Source: a virus
Taxonomy: Duplodnaviria; Heunggongvirae; Uroviricota; Caudoviricetes
IMG/VR virus record: IMGVR_UViG_2531839252_000007
Strand: one strand, 5' to 3'
DNA: 12,956 bases
Made by a program: the position numbers and the translations under genes. Under the pieces are notes generated by a model. The model worked only from the letters and a program-made list of their open reading frames with translations. It was not told where the DNA came from and did not search any database. Of the stretch, positions 1 through 11,679 are shown in pieces; the first letter of the stretch is position 1, and every line of letters begins with the position of its first letter.

Positions 1-1260
1 ATGGCAAAGCTGACAGATATCCAAATCAAGTCATGGATTAAGGCAGGAGAGCGCTTCGAGGGGCGCTCTGACGGCAACGGGCTATACCTTCGCTATCGAG
101 CGGGGGATAAAGTGCCTGTATGGCGTTTTCGATATCAGTTCGCTGGGAAATCACGGGTAATGCTTATTGGATCTTATAGCGAAATATCCCTTTCCAAAGC
201 ACGGGAAATAGCCAAGGAATTATCCGCACGTGTAGCCCTAGGCTTCGATGTCGCCGGGGAAAAGAAAGCGCGAAAAGCGGCTGCTATAGAAAAGATGGAG
301 CGGGAGAAAAACGCGCTTCGCGTGTCAGAGCTAGCAACCGAGTATTTCGAACGGCAGATTTTGGGACGCTGGAAACATCCCGATCTTCTGCGCCGGAGAA
401 TCGATAAGGATATCAACCCACATATTGGCAACATGAAGATAGAGGACGTAAAACCCCGTCATATTGATGCGATGCTACAGAGCGTTGTTGATCGTGGCGC
501 TCCAACCGTAGCTAATGACGTTCTGCGCTGGACTAAACGCATATTCGATTATGCTATCAAGCGTCATGCACTGGAATTAAACCCAGCTGGAGCATTTGAT
601 CTGTCAGACGCTGGCGGGCAGGAAAGTAGCCGTATGCGCTGGCTGACCCGTGAAGAACTTATACGTTTTTTCCAAGCTATGCGCACTGCAAAAGGATTCA
701 GCCGCGAGAACGAGCTGACCATGAAGCTAATCCTCTGCCTGTGTTGTCGCAAAATGGAGCTGTGCGGTGCTCAGTGGGATGAATTCGACCTTGATGAAGC
801 AGTGTGGCATCTACCAGCAGAACGCGTTAAAAACGGCGACGCTATTGATATACCACTACCTCCACCTGCGGTTGGTTGGTTGAGAGAGCTTCGCACTATC
901 GCGGGCAGTGGGAGTAAATGGGTTCTCCCCGCGCGGAAGATGCAACACCGCATGATTCCCCACATTCAGGAAAGCACACTCCCCGTGGCGCTGGCAAAAG
1001 TACGCCGCGAAATGCCAGAAGTACCAAACTTCACAATTCACGATTTCAGACGTACCGCCCGCACCCATTTAGCGGCGTTGGGTGTCGATCCCGTAGTCGC
1101 AGAACGTTGCCTGAATCACCGCATTAAAGGCGTTGAGGGTATCTACAACCGCCACCAGTACTTTGAAGAACGACGGGCAGCCCTGGAACTGTGGGCGGGG
1201 CTTCTGGTTTCGCTTGAACGAGGGGAAAACTACAATGTTATTCCTTTATCTAAAATATAA
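1..1260 (+). CDS. int: Tyrosine recombinase / phage integrase, P4-like family
   Basis: 419-aa ORF. The N-terminus (MAKLTDIQIK...GNGLYLRYRAGDK..WRFRYQFAGK) is typical of P4-type integrase N-domains. C-terminal catalytic signatures HDFRRTARTH (H-x-x-R) and GIYNRHQY (catalytic Tyr region) are present. The window begins exactly at the start codon, so promoter and att site lie outside it. Confidence 0.93.
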   Translation: MAKLTDIQIKSWIKAGERFEGRSDGNGLYLRYRAGDKVPVWRFRYQFAGKSRVMLIGSYSEISLSKAREIAKELSARVALGFDVAGEKKARKAAAIEKMEREKNALRVSELATEYFERQILGRWKHPDLLRRRIDKDINPHIGNMKIEDVKPRHIDAMLQSVVDRGAPTVANDVLRWTKRIFDYAIKRHALELNPAGAFDLSDAGGQESSRMRWLTREELIRFFQAMRTAKGFSRENELTMKLILCLCCRKMELCGAQWDEFDLDEAVWHLPAERVKNGDAIDIPLPPPAVGWLRELRTIAGSGSKWVLPARKMQHRMIPHIQESTLPVALAKVRREMPEVPNFTIHDFRRTARTHLAALGVDPVVAERCLNHRIKGVEGIYNRHQYFEERRAALELWAGLLVSLERGENYNVIPLSKI

Positions 1261-2670: not shown

Positions 2671-3341
2671 TGGGCGCCATTCACCAGATATATGAGCAGG
2701 AAATGTTCTATAACTGGATAGGCGATGGTAAACGATGTGTAGCATTCCACGAAGCGGGCCATGCAGTAGCCGCATGGCTTATTCGCTTAGATATGCAGGT
2801 TATCGCCATTATGGATGAATCCGGCTACGTTGCTGGCGAACATGTACATGAAGCCCAGTGTTTGGGCGTTGTTAAACACGGCATAATCCACAACCACGAT
2901 CTCAGGCGTTTGCGGGAGAGTAAATCTGGTGTAGTTGGGCACGATGGCAAAGTTATCCCTTTCATACGCTACTACGCGGAAGGTATAAAACGCGATGCAA
3001 CAAAGGCCGCTTTTGTAGCCCTCGCTGGACCAGTAAGCGAAGCCCTTTACGAAAATAACGAAATTTTCAATAAAAAGTATTCACTCCCTCACCGCTATGA
3101 CATGGCTAACGTAAATGACATGCTCGATTTAATATGTGCCACGGATAAGCAAATTAACAGGAAGTTAATGCTTTCTAAACTTGTTGAAAAGACCAAATTC
3201 CTCATGACTCAATACTGGCCGGAAGTAGGAAAAATAGCGCATTTGCTTGAGCGGGATAACATTGTTAATGGGCGCGATGTTAGCTCGCTAATCGGCCTCA
3301 ACGTCATTGACCGGGCAACGCCATTTTTGCTGGCGGAATAA
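2670..3341 (+). CDS. Standalone zinc metalloprotease-like protein with HEXXH motif (FtsH / M41 protease-domain-like)
   Basis: AFHEAGHAVAAW motif at residues 26-37 (HEAGH at nt 2748-2762) resembles the FtsH active-site helix. Downstream LAGPVSEALYEN resembles the FtsH LAEE region. No AAA+ ATPase or transmembrane segment is present. Start is coupled to the upstream stop. Confidence 0.75.
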   Translation: MGAIHQIYEQEMFYNWIGDGKRCVAFHEAGHAVAAWLIRLDMQVIAIMDESGYVAGEHVHEAQCLGVVKHGIIHNHDLRRLRESKSGVVGHDGKVIPFIRYYAEGIKRDATKAAFVALAGPVSEALYENNEIFNKKYSLPHRYDMANVNDMLDLICATDKQINRKLMLSKLVEKTKFLMTQYWPEVGKIAHLLERDNIVNGRDVSSLIGLNVIDRATPFLLAE

Positions 3342-4618: not shown

Positions 4619-5731
4619 CTATTTAACTAAACGTAAATGTGACGGGCGTATCCCCGATTCCTGGGTACTCGATTTTCCACCATTGATAGCTTCCATAAAG
4701 AAGCTGTTACTGAAAGTAAGTGCACTCGCTTCGTCCGCAGGTAACCTCAACTGCTCGAGAATATCTCCCCTTTTAACGCCTTTGCTGCGTAGGGCTGAAA
4801 ACACTTTATCCAGCACTAATGACTTTTCACGTTCAGCAATCCCTTGAGGCTCACTCGTACGATATCCACGGCGAGCAAGTTCTATCGATAGCTGTCGATA
4901 ATGCCATTCGGTAGATAAACCGACATCAAACGTACGGCGCACCAAAGCCGCCAATGATACCCGCCAGTTCTTTTTTAACGAGATGAGTAGATCAAGCGAT
5001 GGCATTCTTGGCACTAAAGCTAAAATACTACGCTCAGGCATCAAAAAGGCCGATGCGAATCGATCTGCATCCTGCTCAGCTTGGCGGCCGTTGTTAGTTG
5101 AATGTTTATGGAGAACCAAGTGCCCCAGTTCATGAGCTGCATCGAATCGACTACGCTCCGGCGTTTTCATTGTATTCAAAAGCACAAAAGGTTTTTCATC
5201 CATCCAGAAAGAAAAGGCGTCTACTTCAATACAATTTTCCGCGAGAGAGAACACACGGACCCCATTAGCTTCAAGAAGATGGACCATGTTAGAGATGGAT
5301 AATTCACCTATCCCCCAACTTTCTCTAACCACGCGAGCAGCTCGCTCAGGCTCAGAATAACCATCGAAACTACAATCAGGTACATTAGGTTTAGGAAGCT
5401 TAAACTGCCCGTCAATCCAAGCTGATAGCTCTTGCGCGAGCTTTCCGGCTCCGAGTGCTGAGTCCCTTTTCTGTGCCGTCAACTTTGTCATTGCACGGAA
5501 ACTAACGGCTTCTGGCGACAGAGTAGGTACATCCCTGTCGAGGAAGAACTCAATCGGATAGCCCAGAACAGCAGAAATCCGTTCCATGGTATCGCTGGCT
5601 ATGGCATCAAAAATCCCTGCTTTCTCGTAATTCGAAATCGTCTTACTAGTCAATTCTGTAGCTTCAGCTAAAGCTCTTTGTGTCAGGCCTCTCCGTTCTC
5701 TGGCTATACGTAAACGCTCTGAATTAAACAT
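4619..5731 (-). CDS. XRE-family HTH fused to ImmA/IrrE-type (M78, COG2856-like) zinc metallopeptidase, with C-terminal extension of about 130 aa
   Basis: N-terminal HTH LTQRALAEATELTSKTISNYEKAG. HELGH at residues 200-204 (nt 5120-5134, verified by reverse-complement translation). Followed by EQDADRFASAFLMP, the characteristic ImmA/IrrE E-x-x-A-x-x-F-A-x-x-x-L-x-P signature. Starts 9 nt after the upstream gene stop. Confidence 0.9.
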   Translation of the reverse strand: MFNSERLRIARERRGLTQRALAEATELTSKTISNYEKAGIFDAIASDTMERISAVLGYPIEFFLDRDVPTLSPEAVSFRAMTKLTAQKRDSALGAGKLAQELSAWIDGQFKLPKPNVPDCSFDGYSEPERAARVVRESWGIGELSISNMVHLLEANGVRVFSLAENCIEVDAFSFWMDEKPFVLLNTMKTPERSRFDAAHELGHLVLHKHSTNNGRQAEQDADRFASAFLMPERSILALVPRMPSLDLLISLKKNWRVSLAALVRRTFDVGLSTEWHYRQLSIELARRGYRTSEPQGIAEREKSLVLDKVFSALRSKGVKRGDILEQLRLPADEASALTFSNSFFMEAINGGKSSTQESGIRPSHLRLVK

Positions 5732-5740
5732 GGTGCATAT

Positions 5741-6460
5741 TTAGCCTGTTTTTAAAATGTCGAGATCGATATCCGGTGTAAACTGCGGTACATCACCGTT
5801 CTGAACAATAGGGTCAGGTTGATGAGGAGCAATAATTAAACGTGTGGAGAAGGCATTAACTACATTCTTGTTATTGTATGAAATCGGGCGTGAAAGCTCA
5901 GCTCGGATCCCCACGCGCTCATCCCCGTCAATTTCATAAAAATCGTAAAGTAAAAACCATAAGTCCAGTCCGATTTTATTCGGTAGCAGTGGTATAACAT
6001 CACCTTCCGGCATGTCTAAATCCAGCTTAAGCTGGCTATCATCCAGGATAAGCTCACCCTGACCCGGGGTGTTATTATGGATTAACCCCATCAGCTCACA
6101 AGTAAAATCACCTTTCTTCATGCGAGACTCAGGAAATCCATGAACCAAACCTGTCTGATCACACCCCCGGCAGAGGTAAAGGGCAACTTTATCACTTACA
6201 GTCAGTTCAACATTTCGCAGGGACAGACGTTTGTAGCCTTTCGGAGCCAGAATGTCGCGGGCTGCACTCACCCCCTCACCATAGAAATATTGCCCACGTG
6301 AGGTCTTGGGGTGATTCTGAGTCGTCGAATAACGACCAGACAAGCCACGCTCAAGAATACGCCTGAGATCACTTTGGCTCAGATTCAGGGACTGCAGGTA
6401 GGATTCAACATCGTCAGGATCTGCCAAAACAATGGTTTTTGCGAGATTATGAGAGTACAT
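5741..6460 (-). CDS. Hypothetical protein (239 aa), first gene of minus-strand cargo operon
   Basis: ATG at 6458-6460 with an AAGAGG Shine-Dalgarno 8 nt upstream. No recognisable family. Co-oriented with, and 9 nt upstream of, the HTH-peptidase gene. Confidence 0.8.
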   Translation of the reverse strand: MYSHNLAKTIVLADPDDVESYLQSLNLSQSDLRRILERGLSGRYSTTQNHPKTSRGQYFYGEGVSAARDILAPKGYKRLSLRNVELTVSDKVALYLCRGCDQTGLVHGFPESRMKKGDFTCELMGLIHNNTPGQGELILDDSQLKLDLDMPEGDVIPLLPNKIGLDLWFLLYDFYEIDGDERVGIRAELSRPISYNNKNVVNAFSTRLIIAPHQPDPIVQNGDVPQFTPDIDLDILKTG

Positions 6461-6520: not shown

Positions 6521-6666
6521 AAATCACTGTATAAAATCTCAGAGATAATCGACAGATTAGAGAGTATTATCCATATTGAGGCTATCCCGACGGGGAGAAA
6601 AGCGGCTACGCCTTGCCGCCTGCCTCCCCCATTATCTCAAGGCGGTGACGTGTAAGGCGAACGTGC

Positions 6667-7485
6667 ATGAGTGGTTTTGTTTTTCCTTTCGAGTTTCAAC
6701 CAGTGCCAGAGGCATTGGCAATCCTGAACGACATGGATATTGCTCCCTTTGAAATAACCGAAAAACACCTAGAAAGCTGGTGGGCGGAGGGGAAAATTCA
6801 ACTGTGCTTTAACTGGGGTAGATTCTGGAAAGCTGGCTTAGCCGACGAACTGGCAAAAACAGAAGGCTACGCAGAATTAGGGGCGAAAGAAAAGATCACT
6901 GCGCTCAATGCTGTATCCGCTTCCCCCGAGGCTAACATCAGTCTTGTCGTGCCATCTTACAGCGATTTAAGTTTTATCTGGCGCGGGCATAGCGACGATC
7001 CACTCCCCTGTATCGAGGCCAAACCCTACGGGCTTGATCAACCTTTTGTTATCAAACGCGTTCCTCACACCTGCGAGGACTATTGCGATTACGGTACGCA
7101 GCATTGGGAAAAACTTTACCATTCGCTGCACATTTCGAGTATGGTGCTGCCGCGTGCTGAAGCTGAAAAAATTTATTATCTCTGCAACCCTACAGCTATT
7201 CCAGGCATGGACGAAAAGACGGCATCTGCAGTATCTGCGAAAACGGTTAACTATCTGGCCACTGCTTTAAAAGCTTTTATTCACATCCATTACGGGGCTG
7301 ATGTGGCGGACAACCTGCGCAAACATCTTGAGGATCCCACCAGTGATATACGGAAAGACTTTGCGAATAAAGGGATCAAAGCGCCAGGTGGAAAAGCGCT
7401 GGCCAGCCATCTGAAAAATATTCTGATTGAAGTTTTACCCGCGCTCGACAACGTCGATGTGGAGAGTGACGCTGGTAATACATAA
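6667..7485 (+). CDS. Hypothetical protein (272 aa), divergent from the minus-strand operon
   Basis: Coding-like ORF with AAGG about 9 nt upstream of the ATG. Contains a Cys/His-rich patch HTCEDYCDYGTQHWEKLYHSLH. No recognisable family. Confidence 0.7.
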   Translation: MSGFVFPFEFQPVPEALAILNDMDIAPFEITEKHLESWWAEGKIQLCFNWGRFWKAGLADELAKTEGYAELGAKEKITALNAVSASPEANISLVVPSYSDLSFIWRGHSDDPLPCIEAKPYGLDQPFVIKRVPHTCEDYCDYGTQHWEKLYHSLHISSMVLPRAEAEKIYYLCNPTAIPGMDEKTASAVSAKTVNYLATALKAFIHIHYGADVADNLRKHLEDPTSDIRKDFANKGIKAPGGKALASHLKNILIEVLPALDNVDVESDAGNT

Positions 7486-7547
7486 CCCCGGAACATTCCA
7501 TATATTCCGACGCATTAGAATATTCCAGAGCCCATCACCATAACCTT

Positions 7548-7581
7548 GCGATTACCTTCTCACTCAATAGCAGGTAATCGC
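7548..7581 (+). promoter_or_regulatory. Inverted repeat GCGATTACC/GGTAATCGC overlapping the alpA ribosome-binding site
   Basis: 9-bp arms at 7548-7556 and 7573-7581 with a 16-nt spacer. The right arm ends at the base before the alpA ATG. Three TATTCC-like repeats lie upstream at 7494-7526. Confidence 0.4.
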
Positions 7582-7794
7582 ATGAAATCGCAAACTTTCA
7601 CCTTTCCCACCAATGGCAACGCACGAGCCAAACAAGTGGCGCACTATCTTGGAGTGCATATCAGCACCGTATGGCGCTATGCAAAACGTCCTGATTTTCC
7701 AAAACCCCACCAGTTAACCGACGGCGTGACCGTCTTTGACGCCGCAGCTATTCGCCAATGGAACAAGCAAAAAACCGGGGGTGAGAATGCTTAA
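7582..7794 (+). CDS. alpA: AlpA-family (P4 Vis / CP4-57 AlpA-like) small HTH regulator or excisionase
   Basis: 70-aa product MKSQTFTF...VAHYLGVHISTVWRYAKRPDFPKPHQLTDGVTVFDAAAIRQWNKQ matches the AlpA/Xis-type pattern (LGVs.sTvWR...FP.P...W...I..W). An in-frame start also exists at 7546. Confidence 0.85.
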   Translation: MKSQTFTFPTNGNARAKQVAHYLGVHISTVWRYAKRPDFPKPHQLTDGVTVFDAAAIRQWNKQKTGGENA

Positions 7795-7848
7795 CGCGAC
7801 CGTGAGCACACCCTGCACGACAGCCGTTCGATCTCCATTGTTGGCGGG

Positions 7849-8043
7849 TCAGGCTTTCGGCTCAATACCCAGCCGCTGGAGTTCTTTGCGCCCCAAGGTT
7901 TTCATCCAATTAGCTAAACTCATACCTGCATCTCGTGCGGCGGCCTCGAATTGCTCTTTCAATTCTGGGGCGATCCTCACTTGGAAAGCTGGTGCCTTTC
8001 CCCTGCCTTTGGGCTGTTTATCACGCTGTATTACTGTTGACAT
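7849..8043 (-). CDS. Ribbon-helix-helix (CopG/Arc-like) small DNA-binding protein, likely repressor
   Basis: 64-aa product from M18 of the track ORF; the upstream AGG gives a better ribosome-binding site than the 8094 start. FQVRIAPELKEQFEAAARDAGMSLANWMKTLGRKEL fits a strand-helix-helix pattern. Divergent from the replication operon. Confidence 0.6.
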   Translation of the reverse strand: MSTVIQRDKQPKGRGKAPAFQVRIAPELKEQFEAAARDAGMSLANWMKTLGRKELQRLGIEPKA

Positions 8044-8177
8044 GTATGTACCTATTAAACTAAGATTCAAATCAATAGGTACGCACCTTAACATGTTAAG
8101 GTCAGAAAAGACAACGCCCCGTATGTGTTGCGAGCACTACGGGGCGTCTAACCAACAACGTTACGGAGACTAACGCT
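8044..8177. promoter_or_regulatory. Densely structured control region between the RHH gene and the replication operon
   Basis: Inverted repeat GTACCTATT/AATAGGTAC (8048-8056 / 8074-8082). Perfect 16-bp palindrome CCTTAACATGTTAAGG (8086-8101). GC-rich inverted repeat ACGCCCCGTA/TACGGGGCGT (8114-8123 / 8138-8147). Confidence 0.5.
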
Positions 8178-8378
8178 ATGGCTAAGCCGCAGTGTACCCA
8201 AACTCACCCCAAATATCAGTATCGTTTTATGGCGCTCGATCGCGCTGACCGCCAGGCAAAACCCTGCAAAATCATTGTTGAGGCCACCAGCGAGCACGAA
8301 GCGCGTAAAGTGCTGGCTCCTCACTACATCCTGTCACTGTCCGCCGTTTTGCCAGTTCAGGAGGTGAGCCATGTTTAA
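8178..8378 (+). CDS. Small hypothetical protein (66 aa), first gene of replication-module operon
   Basis: GGAGA Shine-Dalgarno 9 nt upstream. The operon is tightly packed. Confidence 0.65.
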   Translation: MAKPQCTQTHPKYQYRFMALDRADRQAKPCKIIVEATSEHEARKVLAPHYILSLSAVLPVQEVSHV

Positions 8379-8565
8379 CGTCATTGTCACGGTCACCTAT
8401 CACTTTTCGGGAACGATCCGTCGTTTTGCTATTCCGGAACGTTTCAATAATCGTGAGCTCGCAGAGAAAGCAGCGCAGCAGTTAACCCATACCAGCTATC
8501 TGGATGATGGAGTGAGCAGAATTGTGACCCACGCGGCGGAAGTAGTGGAGGTGCGCCATGTATGA
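8371..8565 (+). CDS. Small hypothetical protein (64 aa)
   Basis: AGGAGG Shine-Dalgarno 6 nt upstream. Start overlaps the upstream stop by 8 nt. Confidence 0.7.
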   Translation: MFNVIVTVTYHFSGTIRRFAIPERFNNRELAEKAAQQLTHTSYLDDGVSRIVTHAAEVVEVRHV

Positions 8566-8746
8566 CGCCTACCTGAACCCAAAGGACGCACTCCGTCCGA
8601 TCGCCGTTGCACTCGAGGCTGTGCAGTTTATCGCGCTTGACCCGGAGAATACCGATTTAGCCCATGAGCTGATCGCCTGGGCACTTGAAACAGCCGCGCG
8701 TGCCTCAGCTGCGCAACGTAACCCCCCGGAGGGTAAAAATGCTTAA
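8558..8746 (+). CDS. Small hypothetical protein (62 aa)
   Basis: GGAGGTG Shine-Dalgarno upstream. Start overlaps the upstream stop. Confidence 0.7.
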   Translation: MYDAYLNPKDALRPIAVALEAVQFIALDPENTDLAHELIAWALETAARASAAQRNPPEGKNA

Positions 8747-9047
8747 TCTCAATACATGGAATCTTTTCACGCTGCCGCTGAACGGTGGCGCAGCTGAGAC
8801 AGCGCCGGACGATCTGCGTCTGCTGGCCGCTGTGGGGGACGAGGCTCGCAACGACTACCTGCGCGGTGTAAGCGCCATCGGCAATCTGATCTTCTGGGCA
8901 TGTGATAACCCCAACTACACCGACCATAAAGCTGACCTGCCAGCGCTGGGCGCATTCCTGAAACATACCGCTGATATGGCGCGCGCTGCCGAATTCATGG
9001 CGGGACATCTGGACTCACTGGCTGACGGCAAAGAGGGAGGCAAATAA
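8739..9047 (+). CDS. Hypothetical protein (102 aa)
   Basis: Trimmed from track ORF 8685-9047 to the ATG at 8739, which has a GGAGGG Shine-Dalgarno and overlaps the upstream stop. Confidence 0.6.
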   Translation: MLNLNTWNLFTLPLNGGAAETAPDDLRLLAAVGDEARNDYLRGVSAIGNLIFWACDNPNYTDHKADLPALGAFLKHTADMARAAEFMAGHLDSLADGKEGGK

Positions 9048-9268
9048 TGCCACGCAAACATCGCTCATCAAGCAACCTGATCAAATTAATGGAACGCCAG
9101 AAAGGTATAGGGCGCGACGATATCCAGATCGCAGATAATCGCCCTACATTCATGCCGTACGAGCCGAACGGAACCTACGCCACAAACCGCCATACCCGCC
9201 GTATGCTACGCAAGCTCCACGGCATCCAGGCAAAAAGAATGTGTGATCTGAAAGGAGGTCAGAAATGA
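9047..9268 (+). CDS. Small basic hypothetical protein (73 aa)
   Basis: AGGGAGG Shine-Dalgarno upstream. TAATG start/stop overlap with the upstream gene and ATGA overlap with the primase gene. Confidence 0.65.
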   Translation: MPRKHRSSSNLIKLMERQKGIGRDDIQIADNRPTFMPYEPNGTYATNRHTRRMLRKLHGIQAKRMCDLKGGQK

Positions 9269-11679
9269 TTGGATTCGATCACCTGATGGAGCAGGGGCAG
9301 AAACGCACCCCTGCTCGTTTTACTGCAAATAGCTTTTCTGACCTGTGCAACGCTATTCTATCGCATCGTGTGCAAATTTCCATCACCCCAGAAATGACAG
9401 ATGAAGAGCGACGTAAGGAAAAGCAGAAACTGTACTGGTTCTCGGCAACTACCCAGCAGGACGGGCAGCGACGTAAACCCGAAAACATGGCACCGTGTGC
9501 TTTCGGTATGCTGGACATTGACGGCAGCACTCCCGGTGCAATCACAGCACTTGTACAGGTGTTCCGGCGATACTCAATGCTGGTGTACCAGACGGCCAGC
9601 TATACGGCGGATGAACCTCGTCTGCGTATTGTGTGCGAGCTTTCCCGAGCGGTTGAATCTGACTACCGCCGAGCGACAGGCGAATCCATAGAAACTTTGT
9701 TGATGCAGGAGGCTGGATTCTCATTCGCCAGCCTGGCGGATAAGAAAGCACGCTGGGAGAACGGCAGCGATTATGTTGTCTTTGACCGCAATGTATACGG
9801 CGCTCAAAGCTATTGCTACTGTCCACACTCTGGAGCGAAAGCCCAGAATTACGCGGGCGCGGTAATCGACGTAGGGGCGTTACCGGAACCCGCCCAGCTA
9901 CCAGCGAAGGCGGCCAAAAGCAAGGCAAAGAAACAGCGCCAGCGTGACGCCGCGGCGGTAATAGATGCTGATTTTGACGATCTGAGCGCCGGACCGGATA
10001 ACTTCCTTATCGCCGACCTGCGCAGCGCACTCTGGTTTCCCTCCATGCTGCAAAAGGCATGGGACAATGGGGCGTGGATTGAGCAGGGCTACCGCCTTGC
10101 ATCTCTCAAAGGCACCGATTTTGAGGACGACGCGCGGCAGCTGTGGGTCGAGTGGTCATTGACCGCGGCGGATGGCTGGCCTGATGAAGAACTTGATGAA
10201 GTCGCAGCACAACGCTGGGATGGTCTCGCCCCTGACAAAACCAGCTATAAAGCTATTTTTACTGATGCTCAGGCGCAGGGGTGGAATAATCCGAGCACAT
10301 GGCGAGCAAAGGCCGCGTACATTGAGAAAATGGCCCCCAGCACACGCGGTGAACTGCTAGCGCAATATTACGGCAACGTATGCCTGAAAGCTGATGGCAA
10401 CATGGTTTATCACTATACCGGGCAGGGGTGGGAGCACATCGCCGATGCCGAGTTGCGCCGCCAGCTTTCGCATATTTTCAAAGATAACGGGGTCCCCTTT
10501 ACACCGTACGAGGTTAAAAGCGCGATTGAGGCTATGGGAATGCTTCTGCCTTTAATGGGAGAAACTCCTCGTAACCTGATTGGCTTTGCCAACGGCGTTT
10601 ATGATCTCGAGGCGCAGCGATTCCGCCCCCACTGCCCAGACGATTGGCTGACCAGCCATAACGGCGTTGAATACACGCAACCGGTTAAAGGCGAAACCCT
10701 GAAAAACAATGCCCCAAACTTCTGGCGCTGGCTGCATCATTCCGCAGGGGGCGACTTCGACAAAATGGAGAGAATCAAAGCCGCTCTGTATATGGTGCTG
10801 GCAAACCGCTACGACTGGCAACTGTTCATCGAGGTTACCGGTGCTGGTGGCAGTGGTAAAAGCGTGTTCACGGGTATTGCACGTATGCTGACGGGCGAAC
10901 TACACGCCACCAGCGGCACAATGGAGGACATGGACACCGCGCGCGAACGCGCATCTTTTGTCGGCAAAAGCCTGATCACCCTACCCGACCAAGCAACATA
11001 TACGGGTTCCGGGCCGGGTATCAAGGCTATAACGGGCGGCGACGTGGTAAGGATCGACCCAAAGCACGAAAAGCCATTCCATACGGTTATTCGCGCCGTT
11101 GTCATCGCAACAAACAACGAACCTATGCGTTTCACCGAACGACAAGGCGGGATATCGCGGCGCCGGGTTATTTTCCCGTTTAACCATGAAGTGCCGGAGG
11201 CGGAACGTGATCCCCATCTGCTCGATAAAATTAAAGCCGAACTGCCGGTAATCGTCCGTGGTCTGCTGATTGACTTCGAACAGCCAGGCAAAGCCAAATC
11301 GCTACTTATCGCGCAGCGTGATTCAGCGGAAGCGCTGCAGGTGAAGAACGATAACGACCCGATGTATGGCTTTTGCTCTTACCTGCTAGGTTTGCCGAAT
11401 CCCGAGGGCATGTACATGGGCGATGGGCGCATGGCGCGAGAGCCACGCATCTACCTCTATCATGCTTATCTGGCCTATCTGGAAGCCTACGGTTATCAGA
11501 GAACCCCCACCCTGCCAAAGTTCAGCGGAGATTTACGGGACACGCTCAAAGCCTTTGGTATTACTCTGGACAGTAAAAAGAGTAAAAAGGGCAAAAGATA
11601 TAACGTCAATTTGTCTGACAGGGCACAAGAATGGCTGGGAGAAGACGAACTCTCAGCTGTGCCCGACACATTGCAGTAA
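9265..11679 (+). CDS. Replication primase/helicase (N-terminal AEP/prim-pol-like domain, P4-family/D5-like SF3 helicase domain)
   Basis: 804 aa with an AAAGGAGG Shine-Dalgarno. Walker A VTGAGGSGKS at residues 526-533 (nt 10840-10863) sits in the middle, as in P4 alpha and D5-type helicases. N-terminal MLDIDG (nt 9508-9525) is an acidic D-x-D motif consistent with an AEP-type primase. Confidence 0.85.
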   Translation: MIGFDHLMEQGQKRTPARFTANSFSDLCNAILSHRVQISITPEMTDEERRKEKQKLYWFSATTQQDGQRRKPENMAPCAFGMLDIDGSTPGAITALVQVFRRYSMLVYQTASYTADEPRLRIVCELSRAVESDYRRATGESIETLLMQEAGFSFASLADKKARWENGSDYVVFDRNVYGAQSYCYCPHSGAKAQNYAGAVIDVGALPEPAQLPAKAAKSKAKKQRQRDAAAVIDADFDDLSAGPDNFLIADLRSALWFPSMLQKAWDNGAWIEQGYRLASLKGTDFEDDARQLWVEWSLTAADGWPDEELDEVAAQRWDGLAPDKTSYKAIFTDAQAQGWNNPSTWRAKAAYIEKMAPSTRGELLAQYYGNVCLKADGNMVYHYTGQGWEHIADAELRRQLSHIFKDNGVPFTPYEVKSAIEAMGMLLPLMGETPRNLIGFANGVYDLEAQRFRPHCPDDWLTSHNGVEYTQPVKGETLKNNAPNFWRWLHHSAGGDFDKMERIKAALYMVLANRYDWQLFIEVTGAGGSGKSVFTGIARMLTGELHATSGTMEDMDTARERASFVGKSLITLPDQATYTGSGPGIKAITGGDVVRIDPKHEKPFHTVIRAVVIATNNEPMRFTERQGGISRRRVIFPFNHEVPEAERDPHLLDKIKAELPVIVRGLLIDFEQPGKAKSLLIAQRDSAEALQVKNDNDPMYGFCSYLLGLPNPEGMYMGDGRMAREPRIYLYHAYLAYLEAYGYQRTPTLPKFSGDLRDTLKAFGITLDSKKSKKGKRYNVNLSDRAQEWLGEDELSAVPDTLQ

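Follow-up and report, generated by a model that had tools for sequence, protein, structure and literature searches.

RepX of the IncQ plasmids R1162/RSF1010 (Rfam RF00043) is a 75-nt antisense RNA with two stem-loops and a GUUA spacer that lies over the ribosome-binding site (RBS) and start codon of repA-repC, binds FinO, and limits plasmid copy number; its repression of repA by covering the RBS and start codon has been shown experimentally (PMC8136791). SymR, the RNA of the symE/symR type I toxin-antitoxin system of Escherichia coli K-12, overlaps the RBS and start codon of symE and represses symE in experiments, and when the symR promoter was mutated the SymE protein went up seven-fold (PMC4147584). 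In this study, we analyzed a 12,956-nt stretch of DNA from the IMG/VR virus record IMGVR_UViG_2531839252_000007 (hereafter, the window), in which the 134 nt at positions 8044–8177 separate a gene for a small ribbon-helix-helix (RHH) protein from a replication operon headed by a gene for an Icd-like protein (icd). This region, together with the beginning of icd, probably controls the replication operon of a chromosomal island in two layers, namely repression by the RHH protein and an antisense RNA that would block icd translation. Judged from its sequence, the RNA appears to be an unannotated and widespread variant of the RepX/SymR kind that is coupled to a promoter with an RHH operator; no description of it was found in the searched literature or in Rfam 15.

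The predicted RNA resembled both known RNAs in position, layout, and promoter. On the minus strand of the window, an element with a predicted length of approximately 80 nt, compared with about 75 nt for RepX, spans the Shine-Dalgarno (SD) sequence and the start codon of icd and consists of two stem-loops (SL1 and SL2) separated by a short GUUA-type spacer (Table 1). Like RepX, it is encoded in cis opposite the RBS and start codon of the gene that opens a replication operon, its GUUA/UUAG spacer is embedded in UGGUUAG, its 5' part contains AGCCAU, and its putative -10 hexamer lies inside the target open reading frame (ORF) at the aligned position (TAGGCT for repX, TACACT in the window). SymR is also a cis-antisense RNA, of 77 nt, that covers the AUG and SD sequence; its annotated 5' end lies 6 nt inside symE, in the same register as the 5' end predicted here, and it shares the two-hairpin plan, the UUAG spacer, and an apical GUGUUG..GCAC motif in SL2. 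In a four-way alignment, TACACT, TAGGCT, and TAGAAT, the -10 hexamer of symR, occupied one column, and each was followed by 7 nt and then AGYCAU. The parallel extends to the transcriptional layer, because the IncQ repressor gene F located upstream adds such a layer to RepX, as the RHH gene would here, and symE is held off by the protein repressor LexA as well as by SymR (PMC4147584). The RNAs differ in other respects. RepX acts on a plasmid repA, whereas the target in the window is an icd-like gene of a chromosomal satellite; the stems of RepX have different sequences, there is no U-rich tail, and RepX depends on FinO, whereas Pfam detected no FinO/ProQ gene among the window ORFs scanned. The target of SymR is a single toxin gene (SymE has an AbrB-like fold), whereas the target here is the head of an operon. 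The circuit design is also like that of the pMV158 family, in which the RHH protein CopG binds a symmetric operator over the promoter and the countertranscript RNA II is directed to the repB translation start. However, pMV158 is a Gram-positive rolling-circle plasmid in which copG is co-transcribed with repB, whereas the RHH gene of the window is divergent, and kinship at the sequence level is not expected.

The original prediction had placed three symmetric elements between the RHH gene and icd, namely an inverted repeat, a perfect palindrome, and a GC-rich hairpin, and all of them were present at those places (Table 1). For a minimum arm of 8 nt and a maximum spacer of 20 nt, the whole window had 11 distinct perfect inverted repeats, 3 of them inside the 134 nt, and only 3.5% of 5000 dinucleotide shuffles of the region held even one such repeat. 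The symmetric elements are thus far denser than expected by chance, and they are different kinds of thing. The RNA folding proposed with that prediction was carried out for both strands, and each folded better than its shuffles (z = -3.9 for the plus strand and z = -4.8 for the minus strand). The T-rich run said to lie beyond the GC-rich hairpin on the minus strand was also found, and reads TTGTCTTTTCTG. The predicted antisense RNA (8184 down to 8103) folded into two stem-loops with -36.5 kcal/mol (z = -5.9), compared with -28.9 kcal/mol for the sense strand of 8103–8184.

The strand on which the GC-rich hairpin functions was read from its homologues. One genome of each bacterial species was scanned for a pattern calling for pyrimidines at four 5'-arm positions and purines at their partners, and admitting plus-strand and minus-strand G·U pairs equally. 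The scan yielded 84 stretches, two of which (L055 and L090) were chance matches, and the element was present across Xenorhabdus, Photorhabdus, Pectobacterium, Erwinia, Enterobacter, Citrobacter, Kosakonia, and other genera. In 65 distinct hairpins from the 84 Enterobacterales loci, the stem cells comprised 194 C-G, 13 T-A, and 52 C·A on the plus strand, the latter being G·U on the minus strand, with a single case of the reverse. In the alignment of 76 sequences, 98.3% of the cells of the whole structure paired when read as antisense RNA, with 172 G·U, versus 85.9%, with 2 G·U, when read as sense RNA. The 9 nt that follow the stem contained on average 5.4 T on the minus strand versus 1.2 on the plus strand. 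Together, the G·U bias and the minus-strand T-run indicate that the hairpin is read as RNA on the minus strand, where a GC-rich stem-loop with a U-run directly after it has the anatomy of an intrinsic terminator. A second sample of loci, for which similarity to two Icd-like proteins and no DNA pattern was the criterion, was searched with a covariance model (R1) built from the first alignment without RepX. R1 matched 81 of the 82 loci, all on the minus strand and all ending at ATG+9, and the single locus that gave no match has no upstream DNA. The strand bias was repeated in this sample (94 G·U versus 2), which also held stem variants outside the pattern, such as GAAGCCCCG/CGGGGCUUC, while UGGUUAGA was almost invariant. 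Over approximately 160 related loci, therefore, the GC-rich hairpin is the terminator stem-loop of a predicted minus-strand RNA (in the window from about 8183 to 8105), and of the two roles first proposed for it, termination of antisense transcription was borne out by the strand bias and the T-run, whereas a role as an element of the sense leader conflicts with the C·A mismatches that the homologues would have on that strand.

That latter role was considered in a wider form, in which the hairpin acts in the sense leader as an attenuator, a processing site, or an immunity RNA of the P4/P1 type excised from the leader. In P4, P1, and N15, a C4-type RNA does precede the icd/kil homologue, and the sense leader of the window folds better than its shuffles, as described above. 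The Icd-like protein is 44% identical to the product of the P4 ORF just downstream of the CI RNA, an ORF described as kil, and the equivalent region of N15 is similar too. As in these phages (P4 CI, P1 C4, and N15 CA RNAs; RF01695, clan CL00128), a small RNA is predicted here to control an Icd/Kil homologue that heads an operon, be it an early, a replication, or an antirepressor operon. The phage RNAs, however, are cut from the sense leader and act on separate target sites by termination or by a block of translation, whereas the RNA of the window lies on the opposite strand with its own predicted promoter, and neither sequence nor structure matched in either direction. Searches with C4, c4-2, c4-a1b1, and isrK gave no match in the window at E ≤ 1 and none in 7990–8420 at E ≤ 10, although the same search of P4 itself placed C4 (CI RNA) and isrK motifs upstream of its Icd homologue with 74.9 and 60.8 bits; R1 in turn found nothing above 8.6 bits in P4. 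A P4/P1-type immunity RNA was accordingly rejected as a candidate. Since the homologues also carry 172 A·C or C·A mismatches against 2 G·U on the sense strand, and show no sense-strand U-run after the hairpin that could make it a terminator there, we regard a function of the hairpin in the sense leader as highly improbable. The RNA-based switch on the operon leader that the original prediction envisaged is thus supported, but not by the P4-type mechanism that it cited.

The GC-rich repeat might instead be a DNA site for a dimeric protein, either the RHH repressor or AlpA, which is encoded nearby and for which no site was found, and in the window the repeat is indeed perfect. Its behavior among relatives was not that of a binding site, since the loop between the arms varied from 12 to 22 nt and the substitutions were asymmetric, as for RNA G·U pairs, rather than symmetric in two half-sites. 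The element also remained constant while the neighboring regulators changed. BLAST with a 552-bp query (7849–8400) gave matches in 620 of 5426 complete E. coli genomes, with up to five matching places in one genome, and most matches covered only 8103–8161, the terminator and spacer segment, at 85–88% identity, where unannotated DNA directly precedes an Icd-like gene. The islands that carried this segment differed in their upstream regulators (RHH/HicB-like, YlcI/YnfO, or none annotated) and in their replicases (RepA-type helicase or primase). In the alignments, the hairpin and the following CTAACCAACAACG were near-constant, and the operator DNA to the left differed. The right-hand hairpin thus travels with icd and not with the repressor, and a role of this repeat as a protein-binding DNA site seems to us extremely improbable.

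The second stem-loop of the predicted RNA, SL1, was not constrained by the scan pattern, and its loop holds CUCC, the complement of the icd SD sequence. All five upper SL1 pairs covaried, as judged by RNAalifold and pair counting, with the counts GC 53/AU 19; UA 52/AU 15/CG 7; UA 64/AU 7; AU 63/UA 8; and CG 47/UG 23/UA 3. In SL2, which has an inner GUG/CAC helix, pair 63–83 occurred as all six standard pair types. Changes on both sides of a pair were found in 107 cells, compared with 24 ± 5 in shuffles, and none of 500 shuffles reached 107; controls in which the partner was slid gave pairing of only 36–58%. A search of the window for a further target of the RNA found none, CGTCTAACCAACAACG occurring once only, even at 3 mismatches. 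R1 scored 75.3 bits on 8099–8186 (-) of the window and recovered both known RNAs. With pRSF1010_SL1344 (L091) as the RepX reference, it found RepX at full length at 2819–2907 (+) with 28.8 bits (E 3e-5), exactly opposite the repA start, the next match having at most 11.7 bits; in E. coli K-12 it found SymR in register with the annotated ncRNA with 29.5 bits (E 1.3e-5), and other matches had at most 15.5 bits. In the converse direction, Rfam at its thresholds gave no match for the RNA element in the window or in six related loci, and RF00043 scored 98.5 bits against pRSF1010 as the positive control.

A conserved promoter signal for the antisense RNA lies inside icd. When 81 loci were anchored on the icd ATG, the plus strand showed A at +13 in 72, T at +17 in 73, and A at +18 in 74, with +14 to +16 free, so that the conserved positions read TAnnnT on the minus strand. 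The -10 hexamers found were TATGCT, TACTAT, TAGACT, TAGAAT, TACACT (the window), TACCAT, and TATGAT. Codon 6 ends in the T at +17, which was kept in CAT, AGT, TCT, and TGT codons (His, Ser by two codon families, and Cys); its retention whatever the amino acid indicates that the nucleotide, rather than the protein, is constrained. Also conserved, in 71 of the 81 loci, was C at +20 (minus-strand G at -14). Given the weak -35 sequence, promoter strength would rest on the -10 hexamer together with this partly conserved G. Aligned with SymR, whose annotated 5' end falls in this register, the RNA was tentatively given A 8183 as its 5' end. The functional unit reaches past the right edge of the 134-nt region to at least 8196, with the predicted promoter of the antisense RNA outside that region and within the icd coding sequence. 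These features also bear on whether the hairpin is only a terminator or insulator that stops stray leftward transcription into the RHH gene and alpA, the short transcript having no regulatory role. The terminator features on the minus strand would be expected of such an element, and the RHH gene lies directly downstream in the same direction. A bare terminator nevertheless leaves unexplained the conserved -10 hexamer at a fixed distance inside icd, the covarying anti-SD stem-loop, the near-invariant spacer in the pattern-independent sample, and the full-length similarity to two functional antisense RNAs, and we consider this explanation improbable.

The transcriptional layer was examined in the left part of the region. 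TTGACA/TAAGAT was the only sigma-70-like site in 7500–8700, matching at 10 of 12 positions, and its transcript is predicted to start near 8073. Of 82 distinct upstream regions, 57 had TTGAC[AG] at a constant distance from the hairpin, which was -76 in all RHH-type loci. The last bases of the -35 hexamer form the start codon of the divergent RHH gene (TTGACATG), and the NCBI annotation pipeline PGAP annotates the gene at 7849..8043 in the identical locus of strain DEC5B. All 24 RHH homologues start at the CAT within TTGACATG (8043 in the window). An alternative upstream start within the palindrome had been suggested, and a minus-strand ATG (8094–8092) does open an ORF of 7849..8094, but this start is neither used nor conserved: PGAP and the 24 homologues begin elsewhere, the upstream ATG is ACACG in many relatives, and the longer ORF was rejected. 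A plus-strand leader peptide was rejected in the same way, since its ATG at 8093, opening a 26-codon frame to the TAA at 8171–8173, is also ACACG in many relatives; this frame is the tail of an ORF at 7736..8173.

The divergent 64-aa protein, to judge from profile comparisons, appears to have the RHH fold. Its family profile matched the structure of Arc (E 0.036, residues 11–58) and those of Mnt, SvtR-like 2kel, and HP0222, and Pfam HicB matched 14 of 24 family members (best E 5.7e-7), with matches to RHH_1, RHH_5, and Arc as well. The window protein alone fell below the Pfam cut-off (19.5 versus 21 bits), and a search of PDB with this single protein gave no match, the structural matches having come with the family profile. 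An inverted repeat brackets the -10 hexamer in every RHH-type locus; its position is kept and its arms change with the RHH variant, with GTGTACACCTAT, GTACGTACGTAA, ATATGCCTAT, TGTATGGACC, and GTGTGTACCTATT among relatives, and near-identical RHH proteins have the same operator arms. Because the arms change together with the RHH variant, the left inverted repeat is best read as the predicted operator of the RHH protein, in agreement with the suggestion that an RHH operator lies in this region. A further unannotated RHH ORF of 57 aa (MSTPLEKRS...GIEPKG) was observed in E. coli O157:H7 strain 7.1_Anguil (L002 3774–3944, minus strand); it begins in the TTGACATG of the promoter, within a stretch annotated as an Icd-like pseudogene on the other strand, and the operator there is two copies of the palindrome GGTAATTACC.

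The perfect palindrome of the window extends to 18 bp. Its left half, CACCTTAACAYG, is widely conserved among relatives, and the full palindrome occurs only in a subset of them, where one compensatory variant, CCTTGA...TCAAGG, was observed. In the sense leader it may form a 5' stem-loop (about +13 to +30), or it may be a second protein site. In most related loci, the right operator arm is directly followed by CACCTT(A/G)A, after which CAYG often comes (8084–8095 in the window); this motif is kept among islands with quite different repressors and conserved independently of the palindrome, and it could be the initial transcribed sequence, or a shared factor, for instance AlpA, could bind there.

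The operon under control comprises icd, four small abutting or overlapping ORFs, and the primase/helicase gene, and its ORFs overlap at 8371/8378, 8558/8565, 8739/8746, 9047/9047, and 9265/9268, which is consistent with translational coupling. In the mechanism that we propose, the RHH protein would bind the repeat bracketing the -10 hexamer of the TTGACA-18-TAAGAT promoter and repress it. The TACACT promoter in icd codons 5–7 would drive a leftward RNA of approximately 80 nt that would start about 6 nt inside icd, run over the start codon and SD sequence (within SL1, with the anti-SD in the loop), pass the short UUAG-type spacer, and end at SL2 and the U-tract. Being fully complementary to the leader, the RNA would pair with any sense transcript and occlude the icd RBS. 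The anti-SD loop could kiss the SD-containing loop of the leader, and the resulting duplex would cover both the SD sequence and the AUG. Transcripts that escape the RHH protein would thus be met by the antisense RNA and icd translation would be blocked; because the downstream ORFs overlap, primase expression should fall as well when icd is not translated, by translational coupling and polarity. The antisense RNA therefore most likely represses icd translation and, by coupling, the primase operon too, and a toxic division inhibitor and island replication would both be kept off until induction.

The RNA might instead serve primarily as a type I antitoxin against a toxic Icd/Kil-like division inhibitor, in an addiction or stabilization module for which replication control is incidental. 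The match of R1 to SymR in register, the scores of 30–35 bits that one subfamily gives with Rfam symR, the 44% identity of the target to the P4 ORF after the CI RNA, and the tandem copies of the RNA and icd in some loci are all in keeping with such a role. However, icd invariably heads an operon with a primase or helicase gene at its end, and since the ORFs overlap, repression of icd translation should extend to the genes that follow; the other relative, RepX, controls copy number (PMC8136791). We consider it unlikely, although worth serious attention, that the antitoxin role is the primary one. It is compatible with the two-layer model, and both roles may coexist.

Several points weigh against the two-layer control module. 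The RNA itself is a prediction, as are its ends, the translational block, and the binding of the RHH protein. Similarity to the Rfam families was below their cut-offs: RF00043 gave 18.8 bits at 8112–8185 as the best sub-threshold match in the window (cut-off 55) and 26–28 bits in the L024/L058 subfamily, while RF01809 was not reported for the window at E ≤ 10 (cut-off 61) and the antisense strand of one subfamily (L024, L029, and others) reached 30.6–35.3 bits with Rfam symR (cut-off 61). The E-values of R1 are rough. The hairpin in the window has perfect Watson-Crick pairing on either strand, and its strand was therefore called from the homologues; a simple consensus scan for terminators did not list the GC-rich hairpin, which we attribute to its loop rule of 3–8 nt. 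The scan pattern fixed the spacer and the outer stem, so their invariance in the first alignment is partly by construction, and the protein-chosen sample offsets this bias only among close relatives. The -35 sequence of the antisense promoter matched at 3 of 6 positions in most relatives, which is little above background. Between the terminator and the RHH start, a search for a conserved promoter of the RHH gene on the minus strand gave nothing convincing; the RHH gene may be expressed by read-through of the antisense terminator.

Phage satellites such as P4-like elements or phage-inducible chromosomal islands (PICIs) occur commonly in Enterobacterales, and how their replication is silenced without a helper phage is only partly understood; to our knowledge, there is no generally accepted repressor mechanism for PICIs of Gram-negative bacteria. 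The locus described here points to a structurally well-supported, unannotated antisense RNA gene at the head of a satellite replication operon and suggests a post-transcriptional lock on satellite induction that is directly testable. It also links SymR and RepX, two RNAs treated as unrelated families in Rfam. In P4, P1, N15, and, by prediction, these islands, an RNA controls the icd/kil position, and the RNAs are of two unrelated kinds. As a tentative extension, which we rate somewhat below an even chance, SymR, RepX, and the satellite RNA could be one ancient mobile cassette, attachable to any gene that must be silenced and made up of an in-ORF promoter, AUG-RCU, an SD hairpin, a UUAG spacer, and a terminator. 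In the P4/PICI-type satellites of Enterobacterales, it would have taken over from the C4/CI-type RNA as determinant of immunity. Since its stem-loop sequences differ from island to island, it may also define immunity or incompatibility groups among co-resident satellites.

The locus is a P4/PICI-type integrative island. An island of approximately 12 kb that lies between yicC and dinD in E. coli O55:H7 DEC5B is 99.9% identical to the window, and enteropathogenic E. coli (EPEC) E2348/69 has a 98.5% identical copy, in which positions 8103–8183 would fall at about 4,072,514–4,072,594 on the minus strand of NC_011601.1, provided that the alignment has no gaps. The features of the window that bear on the model are listed in Table 1.

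Table 1. Positions of genes and of identified or predicted control elements in the 12,956-nt window
Feature	Position	Strand	Remarks
Tyrosine integrase gene	1–1260		
Cargo genes	between integrase and alpA		
alpA	7582–7794		
RHH repressor gene (64 aa)	7849..8043	minus	start codon CAT 8041–8043, overlapping the -35 hexamer of the rightward promoter
Rightward promoter of the icd-to-primase operon (predicted)	8037..8066	plus	-35 TTGACA 8037–8042, 18-nt spacer, -10 TAAGAT 8061–8066
Left inverted repeat	8048–8056 / 8074–8082		GTACCTATT / AATAGGTAC; 9-nt arms, 17 nt between them
Putative RHH operator	8048..8082		GTACCTATT / AATAGGTAC around the -10 hexamer; arms vary with the RHH variant
Perfect palindrome	8086–8101		CCTTAACATGTTAAGG; extends to 18 bp, ACCTTAACATGTTAAGGT, 8085–8102
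Predicted cis-antisense RNA gene, about 80 nt	8103..8183	minus	5' end near A 8183, 3' end in the U-tract 8103–8112
GC-rich hairpin	8114–8123 / 8138–8147		ACGCCCCGTA / TACGGGGCGT; 10-nt arms, 14-nt loop, inner GTG/CAC helix
SL2, terminator stem-loop (GC-rich hairpin)	8113..8148	minus	10+3 bp stem, then UUGUCUUUUC
SL1	8149..8183	minus	loop GUCUCCG, the anti-SD; lower stem AGCCAU (anti-start-codon) with UGGUUA
SD sequence GGAG	8165–8168	plus	target covered by the predicted antisense RNA
icd-like ATG	8178–8180	plus	target covered by the predicted antisense RNA
icd-like ORF	8178–8378	plus	NCBIfam phage_ICD_like, E 5.3e-18
Putative antisense -10, TACACT	8191..8196	minus	inside codons 5–7 of icd
Weak antisense -35 candidate, CTGATA	8214..8219	minus	17-nt spacer, 4/6 match; uncertain
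Operon under control	8178..11679	plus	icd-like to primase/helicase
P4-family primase/helicase gene	9265–11679	plus	

Further copies of the RNA element were observed in related satellites. In seven satellite contigs, a second full-length element lay approximately 650–870 nt upstream of the first on the same strand (L172 555–642, L110 722–809, L148 676–763, L151 676–763, L159 684–770, L168 685–771, and L139 677–763), which suggests tandem duplication of the RNA-icd module; in the O157:H7 locus L002, an Icd-like pseudogene is annotated where the second copy sits in other contigs, and the RNA element of L002 (3997–4083) directly precedes the Icd-like gene beside roxA. Islands with the SymR-like subfamily (L053 1575–1665, L058 6050–6140, and L069 6645–6735) lay approximately 1–3 kb from a tRNA-Sec gene, and this nearness suggests integration at selC. 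Among known small RNAs of enterohemorrhagic E. coli and EPEC, Esr41 is located on SpLE1 and the paper on Pas small RNAs leaves this locus untouched; both were set aside as unrelated.

Two observations concerned the relatives of RepX. In L091, RF00043 matched the repA-encoding strand (2820–2894, the minus strand of the locus) with 98.5 bits, and its consensus contains GGAG and AUGG; the model appears to have been built on the mRNA-sense strand, the reverse complement of RepX. A tblastn search with E. coli ProQ matched only L062 2021–2314 and L009 6046–6303, ORFs with 36% and 27% identity, respectively, to the ProQ N-terminal domain that lie less than 4 kb from the RNA element. They are of interest because RepX is a FinO ligand; a survey from 2026 also described a ProQ/FinO-like gene in one Enterobacter PICI (PMC13612085).

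Other structured elements and genes were observed elsewhere in the window. The Rfam int-alpA RNA motif (RF02996) matched above its threshold at 6575–6642 (+) with 46.5 bits (cut-off 35.8), just upstream of a 272-aa ORF (6667–7485) that precedes alpA. A perfect inverted repeat at 7547–7582, with 11-nt arms TGCGATTACCT ... AGGTAATCGCA, ends at the annotated start codon of alpA (ATG 7582) and holds a likely RBS, AGG, in its right arm; alpA could be controlled through it, either at translation or as an operator. A 24-bp perfect palindrome, TCATCGTCCAGATCTGGACGATGA, lies at 1453–1476, downstream of the integrase gene, and approximately 100 nt beyond it lies a GC-rich hairpin (1573–1603) with A-runs and T-runs on its flanks, which looks like a bidirectional terminator and gave rise to a spurious Leu_leader match. 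Among the cargo genes, an ORF at 4619–5731 (-) encodes an Xre-type helix-turn-helix domain fused to an M78/ImmA-like peptidase (NCBIfam spr1629-family repressor/antitoxin, E 1e-37), and the next ORF, at 5741–6460 (-), encodes a 239-aa protein that matched no family; the two may form a defense or toxin-antitoxin pair.

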